A stretch of 64,000 nucleotides of DNA from assembly GCA_951828385.1 (NCBI GenBank), contig OX639973.1:1728470-1792469 (forward strand), in the 5' to 3' direction. The notes under the pieces were generated by a model that did no database searches, was not told where the DNA came from, and saw only the letters and a list, made by a program, of their open reading frames with translations. Shown here piece by piece: positions 4,012 through 43,442 of this stretch; positions within the stretch are counted from its first letter, which is position 1; each line of letters begins with the position of its first letter. Both the position numbers and the translations under genes were made by a program. The DNA is from an uncultured Poribacteria bacterium (lineage in GTDB: Bacteria > Poribacteria > WGA-4E > WGA-3G).

Positions 4012-4484
4012 CCCCCAGCTAAAGCATGGGGCTTGTTCAATACGGCAGCCAAGCCTATCGGTTGAACGGGGGTAACTCGCTGTCTACAGTAATATATCGC
4101 AGTATCTCGGTATGGCAGCCGAAACAACGGTTATTAAACGATAGCCCGAACTGGTAGTAGGTCTATCTAAGGATGCTCCCAAAGTCTTAACCTCACTTGG
4201 ATACTGTGATCTGGAAGGGGCAACATATACCCGCTTTTGCGGAGAGCCGAAAGGTCATTACCTGTTTTTTCAAAGACACCGGGTCAGGTCGGATCGGGGA
4301 TGGTGACAGCACTTCCGAAAAGAAGCAGCCCACTCGGAGAAAATCGCCCACGAGTTTGTGGCGAAAAAACAACTCGCACCCCACTTCGGGGAATCTAAAA
4401 CTAAAATAAAGGATCGGTGTTTCCTCCCCTGCCTAAAGTGTTTTTGCTTGGGCGTTTCTTCTAGGGGTTTCCACACCGAAGAAT

Positions 4485-5327
4485 TTGATGAAAGTCGAAA
4501 AACCAAAAGAGAAATACGATCAATTAATTGCTGACGGTTATTGTGTCGTTGAAGATGTTTTAAAGCAAAAGATGCTTGAACGGCTTCGGTTGGTAACTGA
4601 CCAACTGCTCGATGCCCAGACAGAAGATGAGCGTGCCGCCCAGCGTTCCTCTGGTAGCATGATCAGCGTGTATATGCATCCGCTGTTCGCGGAACTGGTC
4701 GTTTATCCGCGGGCATTGCAGGCTCTTGACGCTTTGGGCTTCCTGAGACCGAAATGGTCGTCGGGATATGTCATCAGCAAACCGCCCCAGAGTCCACCCC
4801 TATTTTGGCATCAGGACTGGTGGGGTTGGAACGATCCCTGCAGCTACACGGCACTGCCGCAACAGTTGTTCCTCATGTATTATTTGGTTGACACAACGCC
4901 GTCCAACGGGTGCCTCCGTGTGATTAGAGGTTCGCATCTGAATCGACATCCGCTCCATGATATATTGCCAAGTGCCCACGGTGAAGCACTCCAACGCGTC
5001 GATGATGCTGACCATCCCGCATATCAACACTTTCAGGGTGAAGTTGATATACCCGTGAAAGCCGGAGACTTGGTTATCGGCGATTCTCGTTTGTTACACG
5101 CTTCACACGGCAATCAATCAGATGAACGCCGAACCGTGATTACGCTCTGGTATCATCCATTTTTTGCGCTGCTACCAGCCGAAATGCAAGCACATATCGG
5201 TAGACTCCGACAGAGTCTTGCTTGGTCGGATGCCGATTGGGCACGAATTGCCGAACTCGCACCGGTCTGTGAAGGCGACGTTGAACCGCTAAAGTGGAAT
5301 CGGAATCCGGGCCCTGAACTGAAGTAG
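4485..5327 (+). CDS. Phytanoyl-CoA dioxygenase (PhyH) family Fe(II)/2-oxoglutarate oxygenase
   Basis: Canonical PhyH motifs: WHQDWWGW (HxD), VIRGSHL, and LLHASHGNQS (distal His with Arg/Ser 2OG-binding segment). Confidence 0.65.
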   Translation: MMKVEKPKEKYDQLIADGYCVVEDVLKQKMLERLRLVTDQLLDAQTEDERAAQRSSGSMISVYMHPLFAELVVYPRALQALDALGFLRPKWSSGYVISKPPQSPPLFWHQDWWGWNDPCSYTALPQQLFLMYYLVDTTPSNGCLRVIRGSHLNRHPLHDILPSAHGEALQRVDDADHPAYQHFQGEVDIPVKAGDLVIGDSRLLHASHGNQSDERRTVITLWYHPFFALLPAEMQAHIGRLRQSLAWSDADWARIAELAPVCEGDVEPLKWNRNPGPELK

Positions 5328-5452
5328 CGAAGCTCCAGCATAAACGATTTGATTTGAAAAAAACGGTATTTCATGGTATACTACACAGGACCGAGACCGA
5401 AAGTTTATATTGAGACGACAGTTGTGAGTTATCTGGTGGCGAGGAGTTTCAC

Positions 5453-5650
5453 ATGAAAGAGGTACCTGAGGACTACACTGATCCTATCCTTGAAGAATGC
5501 CTGCGGATGAAGGCGGAGTTCAACGCCCAATTTAACTCTATGGAGGAACTCTCCGCGTACTTGAAATTGGAAAATGAAAAGTTCAAAAAACAGGGATGGA
5601 AATACGTCTCATACTATAAGCCACCAGAACAATCTGGAAAGGATACCTAA
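5453..5650 (+). CDS. Small hypothetical protein (65 aa)
   Basis: GAGGAG SD 7 nt upstream of the ATG. No recognisable domain. Confidence 0.35.
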   Translation: MKEVPEDYTDPILEECLRMKAEFNAQFNSMEELSAYLKLENEKFKKQGWKYVSYYKPPEQSGKDT

Positions 5651-29631: not shown

Positions 29632-30489
29632 ATGAAAAATTCTCTGGATCAATTTTATACCAAAGAAACAATAGCAAAATTATGTTGGAATCATCTTATT
29701 GAGACTATTCCTAGTAGTATAGAAAAAAATATAAATGATCTATTCTTTTTGGAACCTTCTGCAGGAAAAGGAGCATTCTACAAACTAATGCCAGAACAAA
29801 GACGCATTGGAATGGATTTAGAACCTAAGTGTGATGGTGTTAAATTACAAGATTTTCTAAAAACCCTAAAAATTGAGTTTGAGTCACACAATACAATAGT
29901 TGTTGGTAATCCACCATTTGGCAAAAGAGGTCATTTAGCGGTAGCATTTTTCAATCATTCCGCCTGTTTAGCTGAAACCGTAGCGTTTATAGTACCTGTA
30001 ATTTTCCGAAAGTTCATGATACATAAAAAATTGGATTCCAGAATGAAATTTATCAGTAAATTAGAGCTGCCTAAAGAATCCTTTGAATTTGATGATGGAA
30101 AACCCTACTCCGTGAATACTGAATTCCAGATATGGACTCGTTTACCATGCTCTCGCGAAGATATGAGAGAATCTGAAGCACCACCTATCTGCCATAAGGA
30201 TTTTCAAATGTGGCAATATAATAACACTCCTGAAGCACTAAAAGTATTTAAAAATGATTTTGATTTTGCTGTTCCGTCTCAGGGTTGGCAAGACTACTCT
30301 AGAAGGGAGACAAAAACTAATAATTGTGAGAAACATAAGCAATGGATATTATTAAAGGCTAAAAATGACATCATTTTGGCACGCTTATTGGATATTGATT
30401 ACAACAAGCTGGCACACAGATGTACAACAGCCATTCCGGGCTTTAGAAAAGGCGATTTGGTTAAGGAGTATTCTGAACTCTATGAGTAG
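29632..30489 (+). CDS. Gamma-class N6-adenine DNA methyltransferase (Type II R-M modification subunit)
   Basis: Motif order X-I-IV: DQFYTKETIA, then EPSAGKGAF (SAM-binding motif I), then VVGNPPFGKRG (NPPF motif IV). The region is only ~35% GC. Confidence 0.7.
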   Translation: MKNSLDQFYTKETIAKLCWNHLIETIPSSIEKNINDLFFLEPSAGKGAFYKLMPEQRRIGMDLEPKCDGVKLQDFLKTLKIEFESHNTIVVGNPPFGKRGHLAVAFFNHSACLAETVAFIVPVIFRKFMIHKKLDSRMKFISKLELPKESFEFDDGKPYSVNTEFQIWTRLPCSREDMRESEAPPICHKDFQMWQYNNTPEALKVFKNDFDFAVPSQGWQDYSRRETKTNNCEKHKQWILLKAKNDIILARLLDIDYNKLAHRCTTAIPGFRKGDLVKEYSELYE

Positions 30490-31153
30490 AATTTACGATT
30501 TTTTCTTAGATATAAAAAATAATCCCATGGATTATGTTGGCTGGTCAAGTAACTCCGATTTTGAAAAACAAGTAATAAATCAGTTGGAAACGTTTGGTTA
30601 CTATGAAACTAACTTCAATGAGTTAGGAAATAGCTACAGGACATATTGGCGAGAACTGATAGAAATCGATGACGGAATTATAGAAAACACAACACGATTC
30701 AAGCAAAACTATATTTTTCAACCTTTCGGTACACAAAGCTACCCGGACACCCTGATAATAGACAACAAAACCGTGTTGTGTTTAGAGTTAAAATCCAGTA
30801 AGGGCACAAGACCTGTTTGGAATTCTGGATTGCCTAAGGCAAATGGTATATATGCATTCGGATCCTATGTCAAAAAGGATATTACATTTTTTAGAGGTTG
30901 CGATATACTCAATGATGAAGATAGGAAACGACTCTCAGGATTCTTTGAAAACGCAATGAAAAATGCTGAATCATTTAATCAGGAATACATGTCAAACCAA
31001 GAATTCGGTTTTGGCGTGTATGCGAGAAAAATGTATCAAAATCAACGAACATACAATTCTAAAGCTATTATTAACTTTTTTCAAAATCATAGACGATACG
31101 ATTTAGAAAGGCAAGTATTAGAATATTGCAAAGGATTACAGGATTCTGACTAA
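30482..31153 (+). CDS. Putative Type II restriction endonuclease (PD-(D/E)xK)
   Basis: The ATG at 30482 overlaps the MTase stop (tATGAGTAG). SYPDTLIIDNKTVLCLELKSSKG gives the PD...(E)xK nuclease motif. AT-rich like the MTase. Confidence 0.5.
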   Translation: MSRIYDFFLDIKNNPMDYVGWSSNSDFEKQVINQLETFGYYETNFNELGNSYRTYWRELIEIDDGIIENTTRFKQNYIFQPFGTQSYPDTLIIDNKTVLCLELKSSKGTRPVWNSGLPKANGIYAFGSYVKKDITFFRGCDILNDEDRKRLSGFFENAMKNAESFNQEYMSNQEFGFGVYARKMYQNQRTYNSKAIINFFQNHRRYDLERQVLEYCKGLQDSD

Positions 31154-34295: not shown

Positions 34296-34733
34296 TCACT
34301 TTAGCGGAATATCGTACTCGACAAGGGGCAGTCTTTCCCATTCCCGCCATTCCGGATCGTTTTCGTAGAAATCCGCCATCTCCTTCGCTTGTTCGCTTAG
34401 GATACGGTTTCTCTCCGCCTTTGGTAATTGCAGAAACTTACGACGTTCACTAAGGGGTTTATCAGTAGACGGATCCATCGGCTGATTAAGAAGGGGTTCG
34501 GCTTCTGTATCACAAGTCGACTCACCCCACAGTTGGGCGGACTTAATTCCAAGGGCGGAAGCAATTCGATTAAGGACTCTCGCTGTCGGTTGAAGTTTCC
34601 CATGCTCATACTTCGACAACGTCTGACGGCTAACCGACCTATCAATTGCATCCTCCAAGTCCCCGAGTGACATACCACGAGCAAGTCTAAATCTTCTCAG
34701 TGGTTCTCCTACCATGATTACAATACCCTTCAT
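34296..34733 (-). CDS. XRE-family helix-turn-helix transcriptional regulator
   Basis: LRRFRLARGMSLGDLEDAIDRSVSRQTLSKYEHGKLQPTARVLNRIASALGI is a typical HTH_3 domain. Starts 2 nt after the Panacea-gene stop. Confidence 0.7.
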   Translation of the reverse strand: MKGIVIMVGEPLRRFRLARGMSLGDLEDAIDRSVSRQTLSKYEHGKLQPTARVLNRIASALGIKSAQLWGESTCDTEAEPLLNQPMDPSTDKPLSERRKFLQLPKAERNRILSEQAKEMADFYENDPEWREWERLPLVEYDIPLK

Positions 34734-34735
34734 TT

Positions 34736-35305
34736 TTAGAACGGAATATGATCAGATTCATCGGTTGTTATCCGCTTTAGAAAGGAGAGGACGCTTTTGA
34801 TATCCTTTGTACTCACGTCCCAGCCGTACTCTTTAGCAATCTGCTGAACCTGTGTGAGTGTGAGCGTTCCGTTCCGTTCCCAGCTGACAATGTAATAGAC
34901 CTTTGCCGCAATAGAGAGTATGTTAAAGTGTTTAGAGATAGGCTGTTCGTTTATCCGATTTATAGCATTTTGCCATTCCAAAAACTGAGGTTTCTGCTGA
35001 ATGTCCTCCCAGACTGGCTCAACATTATCGGGAACAGAATAAGTATGCCGGCGGATTTCACCAAAAACATTCTGATCATTTGAAAAGGACTCTGTCACTT
35101 CTTTAAGTAACCCACAGTTTACCAAACTATCTAAGTGGCTTGCAACGTAACTACTGTAGGGCCCATAATAATGTGGCGAGAACCCTAAATCAAACTTCAT
35201 CAGGACTGATAAAAAATAAACCTTCTTCTGCAGAAGCGTTCTGCCGCGCAGTCCATTTTCGCCTTCACTCTTCACAACGAGGAGAAGGATGTCAATAATG
35301 TGCAT
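34736..35305 (-). CDS. Panacea-domain (DUF4065, SocA/PanA-like) protein
   Basis: LQKKVYFLSVLMKFDLGFSPHYYGPYSSYVASHLDSL fits the DUF4065 core (LQKLLYF....F.A...GP). The ATG at 35305 (MHIIDI) has an AAGGAGG SD 4-5 nt upstream and lies 11 nt after the HD-gene stop. The ORF-track start at 35329 lacks an SD. Confidence 0.6.
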   Translation of the reverse strand: MHIIDILLLVVKSEGENGLRGRTLLQKKVYFLSVLMKFDLGFSPHYYGPYSSYVASHLDSLVNCGLLKEVTESFSNDQNVFGEIRRHTYSVPDNVEPVWEDIQQKPQFLEWQNAINRINEQPISKHFNILSIAAKVYYIVSWERNGTLTLTQVQQIAKEYGWDVSTKDIKSVLSFLKRITTDESDHIPF

Positions 35306-35316
35306 GTTGCCTCCTT

Positions 35317-36690
35317 TTAGACAGAACACAAAATGTTTTGAATGTCAGCCTCAAGTTCGGAAGGAGCTTTCTGTTTTTTGGACAGATTCCAATCATCGGG
35401 CGAGGCATAAACTTGTACCGTTTCTAAAGAAGCATCGTCGCCAGGGGGACGTACGAAAGATAGTTCACTTGCATAATACCCAATACGCCTTAGTACATCA
35501 TACTTCTCGTCAAGAATTTCGATCGATTCTGGATTTAGAATTTTGCTCCGCCTTCCATAGTCAGGGTTCCGAATCTGACGCTTATGGACAATCACATCGG
35601 TAGCGTCAATTTCGAGATAATGTGCGATCTTTTGCTCCCATTGCTGCTTTTGGGCATCCGCCATTTCAAGTAGTCTTGGTAGACTCCTTGCATCTTCAAC
35701 TTCTTTAAGTGGCAATTCGGCGATCTTTTTGAAAAGTTTTCTGTGGTAAAGTCGATTGAAAATTTCACATGCTTTCTCTTGTTTGCAGTGCCTCAAAATG
35801 TCAATCACCTTTTCGTCGTGATAATTTAGATACCTCTGAATGAAGTTTTCTTTATCATTTTCATCGTATTGATAGAGTTCTTTCATGTCAGAATTGCCGC
35901 TTTCAATTGCAAGCGTAATCCCACGGATAATCATCTGGTTGGAAATCAAACTGACTTTGTGCCAATAGACCTGCTGTGTCATGTGATAGCGCGCAAGCAG
36001 GAGTTGTTCAAGAGCATAAATTCCTGCACTACTCATAACAAGGGAGGTTGTGTTTCTATCCTTATCAATACGGCAGGATTCAATTATTTGTTCCAAATCG
36101 TACTGTCCATACTTGACACCGGCGAAATAGGAATCTCGCAGGAGATAATCCATTTTATCGGCATCAAGTTCACTGGAGATAACGTTACGCCGCCAATCCC
36201 GCATATCCTTCTCTTTAATCAGCCTAACCACAAATTCCCGTTCATCATCGTCCAGAATAGATCTAATCTTCGGGTCTGTTTCGATTATATCAACCGTGAT
36301 CTGTTCGTGTATTTTTTCCCGTGTTTCACCGATACCAGTCTGATCGCGAGCGTACTTTTCTAAGAGATCTTCAGAAACATGACTGAACGGCCCATGCCCA
36401 ATATCATGGATCAACGCAGCCAAGCGCATTAAGTCAACATCTCGATCATTTACGTCATTAGATCCCAACTCTTTGAGCCTGGAACAAATTCTCCCGACAA
36501 TGTGCATCACCCCAATTGAATGATCAAAGCGAGTATGCAAGGCCCCTGGATACACCAAAAACGTCATCGCCAACTGTCGGATCCGACGAAGCCGTTGAAA
36601 AGCCTTTGTGTTAATCAGTTTGACCTCTTTTTCTGAAAGTTCAATGAGCCCGTGAATCGGATCCCGGACTCGATATCTTCGTTCTGTCAT
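35317..36690 (-). CDS. HD-domain phosphohydrolase of the SAMHD1/dGTPase-like dNTP triphosphohydrolase family (COG1078)
   Basis: VRDPIHGLIELSEKEVKLINTKAFQRLRRIRQL...PGALHTRFDHSIGVMHI...LIHDIGHGPFSH and DADKMDYLLRDSYFAGVKYGQYD are the signature segments of this family. Confidence 0.8.
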   Translation of the reverse strand: MTERRYRVRDPIHGLIELSEKEVKLINTKAFQRLRRIRQLAMTFLVYPGALHTRFDHSIGVMHIVGRICSRLKELGSNDVNDRDVDLMRLAALIHDIGHGPFSHVSEDLLEKYARDQTGIGETREKIHEQITVDIIETDPKIRSILDDDEREFVVRLIKEKDMRDWRRNVISSELDADKMDYLLRDSYFAGVKYGQYDLEQIIESCRIDKDRNTTSLVMSSAGIYALEQLLLARYHMTQQVYWHKVSLISNQMIIRGITLAIESGNSDMKELYQYDENDKENFIQRYLNYHDEKVIDILRHCKQEKACEIFNRLYHRKLFKKIAELPLKEVEDARSLPRLLEMADAQKQQWEQKIAHYLEIDATDVIVHKRQIRNPDYGRRSKILNPESIEILDEKYDVLRRIGYYASELSFVRPPGDDASLETVQVYASPDDWNLSKKQKAPSELEADIQNILCSV

Positions 36691-37100
36691 ATTAAAATTA
36701 TACCATTTTTTGATAAGTAATTCAAATTATTTTCACTAAAATCTGCACAAAGCGTAGATTTATCAAGTTTATATTTGCTGCATCTGGAAACCGGAGAAGG
36801 TATTAACGTTTGCTCCAGCGGAGCAATATGTCTATAGCAGCCAGGAGAACCGGTCCTGCACTCCAGCGGAGTGCTATGTGTCTTGAAAGCATACCCGGAA
36901 ACCTCTGTGGAAACAATGCAGCGTTTCTATGGAATACATTGGGTTTTACTCGCTTTCAAGCAACAGATTGAAAATTGTCCAAAGTTTGGCATGAGTATAT
37001 CAGAGGCGTATTTCATTTTCAAGGGAAAAGCTTGGTGTGGATTGCGCAGAAATGGGTTTGTGTGTTCAGGGTTTGTTTTCTAAATGGCAGTTTCTTGACT

Positions 37101-37972: not shown

Positions 37973-39694
37973 CTATGTCTGTGAGGGAGTTAGCAGTGCG
38001 GCGATGTCTGCTGGCAACTGGATACCCGTTTTCTGCTCAAAATCTTCGACGTTTGCGTAATCATTATGGAGTTCAGCAATGAGGTCCATACCAAGGTCTT
38101 GGGCTGTGATAAAGTCGGATTTGGCTTTTTCCCATTTTTTCATGTATAACCACAGTTGCGCGCGGATGACATAAGCTTGGGCAGAATCCGGACTGAGTTG
38201 TATCACTTTGGTACAGTCTTCAATAGCACTGTCAAAATCACCTTTAGTATAGTAAGTAGCACTTCGATTGTAATAAGTTATGGCATCATTCGGATTGAGT
38301 AGTATCACTTTGGTATAGTCTTCAATAGCACTGTCAAAATTGCCTTTTTCCCTATAAACATTGCCTCGATCGCGATATGCCTTGACATAATCAGGTTTTA
38401 GTTCTATTGCTTTTGTATAGTCTTCAATAGCAAGATCAATCTTATCTATTTCCTCGTAAACAGCACCTCGGTTGTAATAAGCGTTGGCATAATCAGGTTT
38501 GAGTTTTATTGCGGTGTTATAGTCTTTTATGGCATTATCAAGATCGTCTTTGTCAGCGTAAGCATTACCCCGATTGTTATATGCCGTGCTATAATTAGGG
38601 TCTATTTTTATCGCTGTGTTATAGTCTCTGATAGCATTGTCAATGTCGCCTTTATCTCTATAAGCATTGCCTCGATTGCTATATGCCTCGGTATAATCTG
38701 GGTTGAGTTTTATCGCTGTGTTATAGTCATTGATAGCATTGTCAAAATCGTCTATGTTAACGTAAACATTGCCCCGATTGTTGAAGGCACTGGCATTACA
38801 AGGGTCCATCTCCATAGATTTGTTCAAGTCTCGAAGAGCACTGTCAAAATCGTCTTTTATATTGTAAGCCGCTCCCCGGTTACTGTAGGCCGTGGCATAA
38901 TTGGGATTGAGTTGTATCGCTTTACTATAGTCTTTAATAGCTTTGTTAACCTCACCTTTGCGGATGTAAGCTGTTCCTCGATTGTTGTAGGCTGTGGCAT
39001 AATCGGGATTGAGTTGTATCGCTTTGCTCAAATCCACAATAGCTTTGTCAAACTTGTCAAGATTAATATAAGCAGCCCCCCGGTTGTTATAGGCTGCAAC
39101 ATCTTTCGGACTGAGTTCAACTGTTCGTGAGTATGCCTTTAACGCCTCGTCTATTTGCCCCAAAATCATCATGAAGTTACCCCGATGGAATGCTAAAGAA
39201 GCGAGTGTTTCTATTTCCTCGGGTGTTACACTGGGTGAAGGCTTTGCTTGAGATTGCATTTCGTTTATAACCTTTCGGATGCCCTCTACTACACTCATCC
39301 ACCCTTTGCTCTCAGGGTTCCATTCGTTAATATCGTAAATTGGTTTGCCTTTTTCGGGAAGAGCTTGGAAATCACTAAGTTGATGATTTTGCCAATCGCA
39401 GTGTTCAAGGATAATCGGAATCACTCTTATGTTTGGATTTAACGCAGCAGTTAATTCTTTATTGCAGTTTTCAGAAGCGAGACTATACCGACAAGTAAGG
39501 TAGAGTAGAATGTCCGAATCGGCAAGATTGTTGAAAATTGCATCCCGCCATCTATCACCGGGTAGGATTTCGTTGTCGTGCCAGACATCAATTAACCCGT
39601 TTTGCCTCAGAACATCAAGGCTGGTTATCAATTCGTCCTTTGCTTCTGAATTTTTATGTGCATAGGTAATGAAAATCTTCAGCCCTTTATTCAT
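37973..39694 (-). CDS. TIR-domain protein with about 10 C-terminal TPR repeats
   Basis: The N-terminus KIFITYAHKNSEAKDEL...DVWHDNEILPGDRWRDAIFNNLADSDILLYLTCRYSLASENCNKEL matches bacterial TIR_2 domains (FISYxxxD ... YxxSxWCxxEL). This is followed by repeated AxYNNRGxAYxxxxxFDxAIxDYxxAIxLxP TPR units. The ATG at 39694 overlaps the MTase stop (ATGAATAA) and sits 5 nt after a GGAGGG in the MTase 3' end. Confidence 0.75.
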   Translation of the reverse strand: MNKGLKIFITYAHKNSEAKDELITSLDVLRQNGLIDVWHDNEILPGDRWRDAIFNNLADSDILLYLTCRYSLASENCNKELTAALNPNIRVIPIILEHCDWQNHQLSDFQALPEKGKPIYDINEWNPESKGWMSVVEGIRKVINEMQSQAKPSPSVTPEEIETLASLAFHRGNFMMILGQIDEALKAYSRTVELSPKDVAAYNNRGAAYINLDKFDKAIVDLSKAIQLNPDYATAYNNRGTAYIRKGEVNKAIKDYSKAIQLNPNYATAYSNRGAAYNIKDDFDSALRDLNKSMEMDPCNASAFNNRGNVYVNIDDFDNAINDYNTAIKLNPDYTEAYSNRGNAYRDKGDIDNAIRDYNTAIKIDPNYSTAYNNRGNAYADKDDLDNAIKDYNTAIKLKPDYANAYYNRGAVYEEIDKIDLAIEDYTKAIELKPDYVKAYRDRGNVYREKGNFDSAIEDYTKVILLNPNDAITYYNRSATYYTKGDFDSAIEDCTKVIQLSPDSAQAYVIRAQLWLYMKKWEKAKSDFITAQDLGMDLIAELHNDYANVEDFEQKTGIQLPADIAALLTPSQT

Positions 39695-42600
39695 CCTTTC
39701 CCTCCACAATCGCAATCTCATCTTCCGTTAAATTATACAATTCATACACCAATTTATCAATCTCATCTTCAAGGGAGGAAGTGTCTGCTTCGGAGTCAGT
39801 GTGTTTAGCGTCAAGGATTTCGTCAACTTGCATTTCAATCTGTTTGACAATGGATTGGTTTGCATCGGTGATAGGTGGAATAGGAAAGTTTTTCATAAAC
39901 TCACTTTTAAACCTGACTCCTTTTGAACCTAAATGACCACCAGCATAGTAACTTTTGAATGCGAAAAGGAAAAACCCTGAATTTAAGAGACCAAGCAAGT
40001 AAGTGAGATTTTTGCCCGTTAAAAACCTTGTCGTATCAAGCGAATAGAATTTGTTTTTATCAATAAGAAATTTCCCTTCTTTTGCCATCTCTTGCCAAAC
40101 AATCTTTTCCTTATCAAATTCTGAGTAGTAGGCACAAGCCCTGAGATTCCACCAATTTTCGCCTTGATCGTCTCTATTCAAGAGTCCTTTACCTTTCATT
40201 TTTATGATTCCCGAGTCCATCCGTTTTGCTAAGGTCTCAAGGTGATTATAGATAGCGGGATATTTATTGGGAATATCCAGATCGGAACCTGTTGCGAGTA
40301 TGTAAAATTTCCCTTGTTGAGCATGGTAACGTTTAATGTCTTTTCCGCGTAGGAGTGGTTTTATGATTTCTGCTGACTTTGGGTCTTGCTTTATGAGTTG
40401 CTCACGTTTTGCTTCGTCTATGATGAATGCTTCATTACAACCTGTTATGATTCCACGATAGATGTTTATATCCCAATCTTTAAGCGGTTTGCCGATACCC
40501 TCTATTTTGCGTTTCAGGTTGAGTTCGGCAGGTGAGAGTATCGCCCACGGTTCACCTTTAGCAGGCATCTCCATAGTCGCGCCATTGGTACTCAAATACC
40601 GGACTATGCTGCCGGTCTGTCTGTCAAAGTCTGCTCCCAGAGATACACCTCTAAAGGCAGCGGGTACATCGGATACACTCTTTTGAAAAAGCAAGATGTT
40701 TGTGTCAACGGTGGCATCAAACACGTCTGGTCCCATATCCAGCAGTTGAATCGGTTGGGTAAGTGTTACAAAGTAATCCCTCAATTTTTTACCGTAACCA
40801 GCGCGCATCCATTTATTAGAAGTAATCAAACAGGCATGTCCATTGGTTTTCAAAAGTTGATTCGCTTTTTCATAGAACAAACAGTAAATATCGCCTGTAC
40901 GGGCGAAGGTTTCAAAACCTGCGCCTTGATAAAGTTTCCCAAGTCTCCCATTTTCCTTTTGCAATTGGACATAAGGCGGATTTCCAAGTACCACATCAAC
41001 TCCGTCTCTGATGCCAAACATCCGTTCCGGTTCAAACCAATCTGTCTTTGCGTTCTGGTCGTAGGGTTTCCAGCGAACGATTTTGCGAGCGTTTTCAAAT
41101 TCGGCATCAAATTCTTTCTTACGCGTTTCAAACGTTTTCTGTTCCTTCTCTCGCAACTGTTCACGCAGTTCAGCGGTGGGAAGTTGGTTCACTTTTTGAT
41201 CTATTTCTCGTTGTCGGCTCTCTATCCATTCTGTTCGCTGCCGCTCCAATTCTTCCTCCAATTGTTGGCGGCAATCTTCTTCTTGCTCTTCAAGTTTACG
41301 TTTTTGTGTTCGGTTGTTTGCGAGAAAAAACTTTTCACGAATCCCGTCAATTTCTTTTAGCAATTGCTGTACGGTATCATCTTGAAACAATCCCCTTGTT
41401 TCGGATAAATCTATGCCTATCAGTGTATCCGCAGCAACAAAACGTGTCTCCAAATTCGGCAGCGGTTTGATACCGAAGTTCTCCGCGTCTCTGTCCGGTT
41501 CCTGCTCAATAGCAAGCGATATGAAAAAGCGGAGTTTAGCGATTTGACACGCAATCGGTTGGATATCCACACCGAAGATGCTATTTTGGATTAGGTATAA
41601 TTTCCGTCCAAAATCCGAATCACGGTAACGCTCAAAAGTATCACTGATTTCGGAGAGCTCATCCTTCCGTTCCTGTGGATTTTGGGTGTTGAAGGCATTT
41701 GCAGCGCGTTCTTTTGCAAGTTGCATCTGTAATGCTTCCCATCGGTTGTTATCAGGGTCAAGTCGCCGGAGTGCCAGCGTCAACTTGTGGAGTATACCCA
41801 TTGGAAATGCCCCGGAACCGACGGCTGGATCCAATATCTTGAGTTCAGAAATTGTTTTCACAATCGCGTCCGTTTCGCGGTTGTCAAACCATTCGTGAGC
41901 ATCGTCAAACATTTTGGCATAGTCAAACAGGTATCGCAATCGTTCGTCCCAAAGTTCTGAATTACCATCACTCGGTTGACACTTTTGGGATAACGCAGCA
42001 ACTAACGCCTCCTCCACCATATAGTCTACGATAGCGCGTGGGGTGTAATAGGAGCCTGTCATCTTGCGCGCCGTTTCTCCCGTTTCCGGGTTGATAGCGG
42101 CGAGTAGGTTTTCAAACACCCTGCCGAGCAGTTCGGGGTCCAGTGCAACCTCCTGATCTACCGGCGTGTTCTCTTCAACGGTGAATTTGTAGTGTTCAAG
42201 TAAAGGGATCAATCCGTGCTGTGCGTCAAAAAAGAGGTGGTTCGGGATGGATAGCTTATGGTACTGATTATCAGAAAAGCAGTCTATTCGGTAACCGCCT
42301 TCACCTGTTGCCTTGAAACTATCCAGACAGTCAAACAAGCCACCGTTGATGAACGGCGTTTTGTCAAAAAATTCTAATAGCTTATCAGGCGCGCGCATCT
42401 GCTTCTTGTAGCGATACCGTGAGAAATTGCGGTGATTAGAATTGCCGCCCTTGCTAAACGTCCGTTTGTCTATCTCTGTGTTCAACGTTGCGAAAAAGAG
42501 GTTTTGTAGCACAGCACGGTAGTAAGAATCGCCGTTGTCAAAACCATTCTCTGTCAAAAGGTTTTGAACTTGTGCTTTGTTAAAGAGTTCATCTGCCACC

Positions 42601-43442
42601 AATCCTTTTTCCTTGATAAACCAGATAAAGAGCAGACGCGTGATGAGTCGGATAACATGCTCTTCCGGTTTTATCATACGATTCTCATCTGTCGGGAAGG
42701 TTGCCTCTTTAACTGCCCATTCATACCACGCGAACAGTTTCCGATAGAATTGCTTGTTGAGTGCTTCTGTATTGAGAATACCTTCCCACGCTTTATGGAG
42801 TGTGTCAAAGTTGGTAACGTCTTCAATTTCAATAAGGCTACGGAGGTGGAGTTCCGAGAGGATGTCAATATGGGCGCGCTTGGGGGAATCAAGGTTAATG
42901 TCCTTGATGAGCGTCACTTTTTCCAATACCTGCTTATTAGAGGTACGTTTGTGGTGCCTGCGGTTGATTATGGCGAGCGAGAGCACAGCACCGTATCGGA
43001 ACATCACCATGATAGATTTTTCAAATGCTTTGTTAATAAAACGGGTGATGTCAGCAAGTTGTGTGCGCGTGTAGGTATTTTTAGTCAGTTGAACGGTGAC
43101 GAACATATAAGAGGTTCTGAGTGCATCGTCTATGTGGGTACTCTCAAATAACGAACCCTGCTCTGGGTCTACCTGTTGGTTAATCTCATCGTCCGCTACT
43201 TGCATGATTTGGAAAAAGGATTGCCACTCTTCAATGCGGAGTTTATCAGATGGCTTGGCGGTGTCAAGGGCGGATTCGACGAGACGGTCAAACCTATTGC
43301 TGTCGATTGCATCATTTCCGACTCGCTTGCTGTAGTAGCCGAGGGTGTTCAGGAGAGTTGTGGCGGCTTCCCTTAGCGGTTGGTTATCGAAATTCTTTAG
43401 GGCGTTCTCAATGTTCTGTTTAATTGTTATGTCTGAATTCAT
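39687..43442 (-). CDS. Large (1251 aa) gamma-class N6-adenine DNA methyltransferase of the Eco57I / Type IIG / BREX-PglX-like kind
   Basis: TGSYYTPRAIVDYMVEEAL (motif X, the FxTP-type segment), DPAVGSGAFPMGILHKL (motif I), VVLGNPPYVQLQ (motif IV NPPY). An HsdM-like helical segment RLITRLLFIWFIKEKGL precedes the catalytic core, and a long C-terminal region is consistent with a target-recognition domain. Confidence 0.8.
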   Translation of the reverse strand: MNSDITIKQNIENALKNFDNQPLREAATTLLNTLGYYSKRVGNDAIDSNRFDRLVESALDTAKPSDKLRIEEWQSFFQIMQVADDEINQQVDPEQGSLFESTHIDDALRTSYMFVTVQLTKNTYTRTQLADITRFINKAFEKSIMVMFRYGAVLSLAIINRRHHKRTSNKQVLEKVTLIKDINLDSPKRAHIDILSELHLRSLIEIEDVTNFDTLHKAWEGILNTEALNKQFYRKLFAWYEWAVKEATFPTDENRMIKPEEHVIRLITRLLFIWFIKEKGLVADELFNKAQVQNLLTENGFDNGDSYYRAVLQNLFFATLNTEIDKRTFSKGGNSNHRNFSRYRYKKQMRAPDKLLEFFDKTPFINGGLFDCLDSFKATGEGGYRIDCFSDNQYHKLSIPNHLFFDAQHGLIPLLEHYKFTVEENTPVDQEVALDPELLGRVFENLLAAINPETGETARKMTGSYYTPRAIVDYMVEEALVAALSQKCQPSDGNSELWDERLRYLFDYAKMFDDAHEWFDNRETDAIVKTISELKILDPAVGSGAFPMGILHKLTLALRRLDPDNNRWEALQMQLAKERAANAFNTQNPQERKDELSEISDTFERYRDSDFGRKLYLIQNSIFGVDIQPIACQIAKLRFFISLAIEQEPDRDAENFGIKPLPNLETRFVAADTLIGIDLSETRGLFQDDTVQQLLKEIDGIREKFFLANNRTQKRKLEEQEEDCRQQLEEELERQRTEWIESRQREIDQKVNQLPTAELREQLREKEQKTFETRKKEFDAEFENARKIVRWKPYDQNAKTDWFEPERMFGIRDGVDVVLGNPPYVQLQKENGRLGKLYQGAGFETFARTGDIYCLFYEKANQLLKTNGHACLITSNKWMRAGYGKKLRDYFVTLTQPIQLLDMGPDVFDATVDTNILLFQKSVSDVPAAFRGVSLGADFDRQTGSIVRYLSTNGATMEMPAKGEPWAILSPAELNLKRKIEGIGKPLKDWDINIYRGIITGCNEAFIIDEAKREQLIKQDPKSAEIIKPLLRGKDIKRYHAQQGKFYILATGSDLDIPNKYPAIYNHLETLAKRMDSGIIKMKGKGLLNRDDQGENWWNLRACAYYSEFDKEKIVWQEMAKEGKFLIDKNKFYSLDTTRFLTGKNLTYLLGLLNSGFFLFAFKSYYAGGHLGSKGVRFKSEFMKNFPIPPITDANQSIVKQIEMQVDEILDAKHTDSEADTSSLEDEIDKLVYELYNLTEDEIAIVEGKDE

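Follow-up and report, generated by a model that had tools for sequence, protein, structure and literature searches.

In this study, we analyzed a 64,000-nucleotide (nt) stretch of DNA from an uncultured Poribacteria bacterium (GenBank assembly GCA_951828385.1, contig OX639973.1, positions 1,728,470 to 1,792,469; hereafter the window) and, within it, an operon that encodes an HD-domain protein related to the deoxynucleoside triphosphate (dNTP) hydrolase SAMHD1, a small protein of the YwgA family (the middle protein, or partner) and an XRE-family helix-turn-helix (HTH) protein. An earlier interpretation made from the sequence alone (the sequence-only reading) had taken all three genes as one module with a possible role in nucleotide depletion, and our analyses support it partly: the three-gene operon is replaced by a tightly coupled two-gene module of HD enzyme and partner, which is the conserved unit, with a local XRE gene. 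Tentatively, and with somewhat less than even confidence, we favor the reading that the partner restrains the dNTPase in a regulated nucleotide-depletion module.

The anatomy that had been described for the operon, with three minus-strand genes, gaps of 11 and 2 nt and an AAGGAGG Shine-Dalgarno sequence, was borne out by reading of the sequence. The genes lie head to tail as follows, with all positions here and below being those of the whole window unless a locus is named:

36690..35317, minus strand: HD gene, 457 amino acids (aa), with the stop codon TAA at 35319..35317, read from the sequence
35316..35310, minus strand: AAGGAGG Shine-Dalgarno sequence of the middle gene, within the 11-nt gap between the HD and middle genes, read from the sequence
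ATG at 35305, end at 34736, minus strand: middle gene (YwgA family, like the C-terminal domain (CTD) of DarG), 189 aa
ATG at 34733, end at 34296, minus strand: XRE-family HTH gene, 145 aa, starting 2 nt past the middle-gene stop

A scan of species-representative genomes seeded with the partner, from which the best 80 of 321 relatives were kept, yielded 79 distinct loci. These are distributed among Poribacteria (~45 species genomes), Chloroflexota, Acidobacteriota, Nitrospirota, Nitrospinota, Omnitrophota, Elusimicrobiota, Thermodesulfobacteriota, Verrucomicrobiota and Clostridia, as well as the archaea Methanothrix and Methanoperedens, and their arrangements were:

59 of 79 loci: intact HD gene directly upstream of the partner gene, with stop and start often overlapping by 1–14 nt
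1 of 79 loci: reverse order, with the HD gene downstream of the partner gene (L081, Methanoperedens)
1 of 79 loci: in-frame HD-partner fusion of 651 aa (L069)
5 of 79 loci: locus cut by the end of the contig
6 of 79 loci: HD fragment or internal HD deletion next to an intact partner
6 of 79 loci: partner without an HD gene
1 of 79 loci: intact HD gene with a disrupted partner (L045)

The sequence-only reading had suggested a survey of whether the two genes are neighbors in other genomes, and this survey upheld the pairing, as an intact HD gene adjoins the partner in 61 of the 73 resolvable loci, representing ~12 phyla including archaea. A second, independent HD-partner fusion (P0276, 635 aa) was also identified. 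Beside the pair, no further conserved neighbor gene was found outside Poribacteria among the 79 partner-seeded loci. The XRE gene follows the pair in 13 loci, which are confined to Poribacteria with none in any other phylum, and the three-gene operon is therefore not the conserved unit that it had been thought to be. When metagenomes were scanned with the HD protein as the seed, the partner was present at all 13 close-clade HD genes having room downstream; only 3 of ~60 more distant COG1078 HD genes had a weak partner-like gene. Four further acidobacterial HD loci likewise carry the partner.

Very divergent partner-like genes were observed behind COG1078 HD genes of other clades (L113, 2119-2637; L114, 1685-2206; L129, 4316-4879), which match the hidden Markov model (HMM) of the family with E-values of 1e-6 to 1e-12 and have no Pfam match. 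The association of HD enzyme and partner may thus reach beyond the clade studied. The family-HMM search of all fetched loci found no additional distant DUF4065-like genes. Some genomes of Poribacteria or related groups have unusual copy arrangements: L006 has two tandem partner genes behind one HD gene (4373-5570), and L025 carries the module twice, its HD genes being frameshifted (39-2253 and 4381-5612). These may represent duplication and decay, or errors of long-read assembly.

Judged by residue conservation, the HD protein is an enzyme of the SAMHD1/COG1078 type with an intact catalytic site. The profile check that had been proposed for it gave matches above the cut-offs to both Pfam HD (PF01966; 2.7e-13, 50.7 bits, cut-off 22) and HD_assoc_2 (PF19276; 1.3e-24, 87.3 bits, cut-off 23.1), and its matches in the PDB include Aquifex 2HEK (2e-45), Enterococcus faecalis EF1143 (8e-39) and human SAMHD1 (~1e-30). 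In 21 HD sequences of the paired clade, residues H52, H95, D96, H99, H104, E107, H128 and E129 are invariant, as is the segment D176-x-D178-K179-x-D181-Y182-x-x-R185-D186, and the invariant metal, catalytic and substrate residues (H...HD...D and the HE dyad) align with those of EF1143 and 2HEK. The catalytic core is one that the window HD protein has in common with dNTP triphosphohydrolases of the SAMHD1, EF1143 and TT1383 type, and this homology leads us to predict the same activity for it. The sequence-only reading had seen the signatures of the dGTPase/SAMHD1 family in this protein, of which the SAMHD1/COG1078 part holds, with all catalytic residues present, and a Dgt-type identity does not. 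Specifically, a Dgt orthologue or anti-phage dGTPase was rejected because the scores are far below the NCBIfam cut-offs (41.6 versus 152 bits for TIGR01353 and 32.5 versus 400 bits for NF041026), and these models cover residues 24-119 only. The window HD protein is up to 94% identical to that of the Poribacteria locus L004.

The middle protein had been labeled a Panacea (DUF4065) protein, an assignment that the sequence-only reading had itself staked on an HMM search, and the label fails in that search. The PF13274 model picked up neither the middle protein nor any of 66 diverse relatives (E ≤ 0.1), and none of another 4 relatives at E ≤ 1, with PanA of Streptococcus phage P9, located via the dataset of Kurata et al., scoring 1.6e-18 as the positive control. 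An assignment to the DarG CTD, the domain that binds the toxin DarT, is stronger. The profile of the middle-protein family finds the chain of this domain with an E-value of 4e-4 and the motif QKxxYF...F.P..YGPYS, and the fold of the middle protein is winged-helix plus helical, like that of the DarT-binding domain. Its closest structural relative is this toxin-inhibiting domain, and not a DNA-bound winged helix. Matches of the middle protein to whole DarG models were weak and to the C-terminal part only (PADLOC DarG, 1.8e-6; NCBIfam DarG NF048014, 2e-3 and 17.3 bits, cut-off 250). A structure model of PanA has the DarG CTD as its top PDB match, as does the window partner. Panacea domains (PF13274; SocA, PanA) also resemble the partner in being small antitoxin-type domains with an LQKxxYF...YGP motif, and they pair with many unrelated toxins. 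On these sequence and fold comparisons, the YwgA family would be remotely related to Panacea/DUF4065.

The middle-protein family has five invariant residues, K27, G48, P49, S51 and K135. Its relatives number 760 matches in a 90%-identity database, two of which are called "uncharacterized protein YwgA" by JGI, and the family comprises 1009 clusters at 50% identity (E ≤ 1e-3) without Pfam annotation. A search of the BFVD viral folds with the model of the middle protein gave weak, unannotated matches only, and nothing functional was found in the literature on YwgA and YwfO. We propose that the middle protein is a binding partner and regulator of the HD enzyme. As a separate observation, the PADLOC model NDT_II-A weakly matches the C-terminal half of the middle protein (34739-35305, E 9e-5), and genes resembling nucleoside 2-deoxyribosyltransferases (~155 aa, KKIIYLANPYGFSEQQRE...) occur near the pair in Poribacteria (L021, 6998-7465; L031, 5683-6147; L024, 7788-8312). 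The match and the recurring genes hint at a link to another nucleotide-centered candidate defense system.

The two genes do not decay alike. In 12 loci a full-length, high-scoring partner is kept where the HD gene is deleted, fragmented or absent, with the reverse in a single locus, and a clade of orphan partners, 58–82% identical, is present in at least 5 species. A pattern in which the partner outlives the HD gene is, as far as such sequences can indicate, one that toxin-antitoxin logic predicts.

Because the pairing is strict, with translational coupling and occasional fusion, and the partner is homologous to a domain crystallized with its toxin (PDB 7YK3), these data argue for a physical complex of HD enzyme and partner, and it is the evidence for this complex together with the asymmetric decay that makes us lean toward a nucleotide-depletion module. 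The genes around the window locus (TIR-TPR, Eco57I-type RM and DUF433/DUF5615) also speak for such a module, as do two precedents, the Clover system and the predicted cluster T34 (both below). From gene anatomy, family assignments, homology of structure and a pair that is conserved, coupled and at times fused, we infer dNTPase activity, physical binding, its inhibitory direction, the trigger and the role of the XRE protein. Potentially, the partner would bind the dNTPase directly, keeping the enzyme inactive or tuned, until it was freed by some cue, for example an infecting phage, replication stress or the partner being lost. The freed dNTPase would then lower dNTP pools, by which DNA synthesis would be blocked. 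In the Poribacteria lineage of the window, the co-transcribed XRE repressor would probably set the expression of the operon from a conserved, possibly leaderless promoter.

The XRE protein is likely a transcriptional regulator and the lineage-specific third gene of the module in Poribacteria. Its label was confirmed by a match to HTH_3 above the cut-off (PF01381; 1.7e-12, 47.6 bits, cut-off 23; residues 12-65), and it carries a C-terminal extension of ~75 aa. It can be likened to the accessory third genes that are allowed for in the systems of Kurata et al. 2022. Upstream of the operon, a promoter-like site was found in a consensus scan:

36725..36697, minus strand: candidate sigma-70 promoter, TTGAAT-17 nt-TATAAT with TG before the -10 hexamer, 10/12 consensus matches

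Its function as a promoter is suggested by position and consensus. Since the -10 hexamer finishes 6 nt ahead of the HD ATG, which has no preceding Shine-Dalgarno sequence, the mRNA of the operon may be leaderless. The ~75 nt upstream of the HD ATG, both hexamers included, are conserved in L001, L002, L004 and L005; the sequence farther upstream is not. Two perfect hairpins with 7-bp stems lie upstream of the HD promoter, 48 nt apart (GCACTCC-GCT-GGAGTGC at 36813-36831 and TTGCTCC-GCT-GGAGCAA at 36861-36879), and could be terminators or elements of the repetitive extragenic palindromic (REP) kind. These GC-rich hairpins (CTCCGCTGGAG at 36813 and 36861) were ruled out as conserved XRE operators, being absent from the upstream regions of relatives.

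Genes flanking the operon in the window encode a TIR-TPR protein, a type IIG restriction-modification (RM) enzyme of the Eco57I kind and a DUF433/DUF5615 (PIN-like) pair:

37973-39721, minus strand: TIR_2 plus TPR protein, 582 aa, overlapping the end of the Eco57I-type gene
39687-43442, minus strand: Eco57I/N6_Mtase/TaqI_C type IIG RM-like enzyme, 1251 aa
33485-34052, minus strand: DUF433 gene (7e-25) overlapping a DUF5615/PIN-like gene (6e-31), assigned by profile matches

Of these neighbors, the RM-like gene is found again beside the pair in 26 Poribacteria loci, TPR proteins with a TIR or FRG head recur in ~10, and these surroundings may represent a conserved defense neighborhood. In one acidobacterial lineage, the neighbors of the pair are an N6/N4 methylase on one side and a DpnI fragment on the other. 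A context of defense and toxin-antitoxin genes is seen near the window locus, in its TIR-TPR, RM and DUF433/DUF5615 genes, but not everywhere, as the pair has housekeeping surroundings in another acidobacterial lineage. Two additional features of the window were observed. The DUF433/DUF5615 pair is toxin-antitoxin-like, directly downstream of the XRE gene, and has its own promoter-like site (34234-34206). At 29632-31153 on the plus strand are two overlapping open reading frames (285 and 262 aa) without Pfam matches, the first having an NPPF-type methyltransferase motif (VGNPPFG), in a kilobase whose GC content is 0.35 versus ~0.47 around it. The drop in GC content and the NPPF-type motif suggest a horizontally acquired RM-like pair.

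A number of points weigh against restraint of the dNTPase by its partner. SAMHD1-family enzymes are allosterically self-regulating, and the putative toxin is, at 457 aa, large. The Panacea HMM does not recognize the middle protein, and the alignment of its family to that of PF13274 with hhalign has a probability of 23% over 60 columns, with the LQKxxYF...YGP motif shared. The sample behind the decay pattern is small, some of its fragmented HD genes may be errors of long-read assembly, and L045 has its HD gene intact and its partner disrupted. PADLOC has no model for the HD-partner system, weak partial matches aside. Nor does the pair appear to be mobile: tblastn of the partner gave no match in 72,556 plasmids and 50,697 phages, only 7 partner matches, 5 with an HD gene, were found in the 2.9 M viral contigs of IMG/VR, and the pair looks vertically inherited within Poribacteria, with conserved neighbors in ~45 species genomes. 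In another acidobacterial lineage, the genes around it are housekeeping genes that are syntenic between genomes, in the order RuvX, HXXEE, AI-2E, HD, partner and YceG (yceG/mltG).

The scarcity of the pair on plasmids, phages and viral contigs, its seemingly vertical inheritance and its syntenic surroundings in Acidobacteria are also what would be expected under the main rival explanation, which we consider unlikely but by some margin the most serious of the alternatives. Under it, the pair is a housekeeping heteromeric enzyme without toxin-antitoxin or immune logic: a dNTPase that sanitizes or balances dNTP pools and has the YwgA-like protein as a constitutive subunit, which does not inhibit it but contributes activation, nucleic-acid binding or targeting. 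Fusions and strict co-occurrence are compatible with any obligate complex, this one included. In B. subtilis, ywfO (COG1078) and ywgA are presumably chromosomal neighbors in the core genome, as their systematic names imply. An obligate subunit should, however, decay along with its enzyme, and so the orphan partners kept without an HD gene in several species, and the repeated internal HD deletions beside an intact partner, weigh against such a role. It also sits poorly with the partner having a toxin-inhibiting domain as its best structural relative, with most COG1078 HD proteins lacking such a partner, and with the defense and toxin-antitoxin surroundings in the window and the RM flanks at the other acidobacterial locus.

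Two further explanations appear improbable to us. The middle protein might be mainly a winged-helix transcription factor, or part of a two-part repressor with the XRE protein, that controls expression of the HD gene. Its fold does resemble the PadR and MarR repressors, a few of its relatives weakly match Pfam PadR, HxlR, RTP or HARE-HTH, and the promoter region upstream is conserved; nevertheless, natural fusions and translational coupling with the HD gene suggest a stoichiometric protein-protein function, a second transcription factor would be redundant with the dedicated XRE regulator of this lineage, and the invariant K27, G48, P49, S51 and K135 do not seem to form a canonical recognition-helix pattern. 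The other explanation, to which we give a similarly small chance, is indirect control as in SocA, with the partner being a proteolytic adaptor or a sensor by which the HD enzyme is handed to a protease, or answering a phage cue without dissociating. Its appeal is that the founding Panacea protein SocA neutralizes SocB indirectly, in a Type VI-like manner (Kurata et al. 2022, PMC8832971), and that a primarily sensory role of Panacea has been proposed (Ernits et al. 2023). Moreover, a motif that YwgA-family proteins have in common with Panacea and the DarG CTD is conserved whatever the partner, which hints at a shared function other than recognition of the partner. Yet the kinship to SocA/Panacea is remote, the closest relative, the DarG CTD, was crystallized in complex with DarT (7YK3), for which binding and inhibition by this domain are described, and an adaptor fused to the HD enzyme would be self-destructive.

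The sequence-only reading had regarded the arrangement as not described, which was too strong. Dataset S1 of Kurata et al. 2022 (PNAS, PMC8832971) contains a predicted toxin cluster, T34, that is a "HD domain-containing protein" (CDD YdhJ, COG1078) next to PanA, although it is absent from the main text of that paper. T34 is listed for Ammonifex, Desulfofundulus and three Caldicellulosiruptor genomes, in toxin-then-antitoxin order, the offsets ranging from -17 to +23 nt (-17, -4 and 0 included), and carries the entry "notest". Like the pair in the window, it is a COG1078 HD gene followed immediately by a small gene, which belongs to the Panacea superfamily and putatively does so in the window too; T34 was predicted to be a toxin-antitoxin pair. 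By description the two are set apart, as the T34 partners pass the DUF4065 HMM and come from five Clostridia genomes, whereas the window partner fails PF13274 and belongs to the much larger DarG-CTD-like/YwgA family. DarTG shares with the window partner the fold of its C-terminal, DarT-binding domain (DarG CTD, PDB 7YK3), but the window partner (189 aa) has no macrodomain and no adjacent DarT, and its neighbor is an HD phosphohydrolase.

Nucleotide depletion is an established antiviral strategy, with defensive dGTPases known in bacteria (Tal et al. 2022), and one that SAMHD1-like enzymes make common to animals and bacteria. The characterized bacterial defense dGTPases are Dgt-type, whereas the window HD protein fails Dgt-type models, and the HD-partner pairing does not figure in a 2026 survey of dGTPase architectures. 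How cells protect themselves from such dNTPases is only starting to be understood, one example being Clover (bioRxiv, PMC12265719), in which the nucleotidyltransferase CloB, as partner of the dGTPase CloA, restrains the dNTPase and limits self-toxicity. CloB acts via a small-molecule signal, p3diT, whereas the window partner has no enzyme fold and would need direct binding; no match to a Pol-beta-type (CloB-like) nucleotidyltransferase was found in it, its fold being winged-helix plus helical instead.

A bolder form of the reading that we favor, and one that we regard as doubtful, is that the YwgA/DarG-CTD-like protein acts as a protein off-switch of a SAMHD1-type dNTPase and might sense infection as well. 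If true, it would represent a widespread bacterial and archaeal nucleotide-depletion module under direct protein inhibition, and would make the DarG antitoxin domain, Panacea and YwgA one ancient effector-silencing family. To our knowledge, no protein partner has been described for SAMHD1-type bacterial enzymes, and the off-switch would be the first protein known to regulate a SAMHD1 homologue in prokaryotes.

Our analyses place in hundreds of species, including archaea, a module in which a SAMHD1-type enzyme and a toxin-silencing domain's homologue are paired and occasionally fused. If the partner is a housekeeping subunit, this would explain a conserved gene pair that probably includes ywfO-ywgA of B. 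subtilis. If it is inhibitory, the pair would represent a new principle of dNTPase control, widen the range of the DarG/Panacea antitoxin superfamily to include a class of enzymes not so far validated as toxins, and provide a function for the large, unannotated YwgA family.

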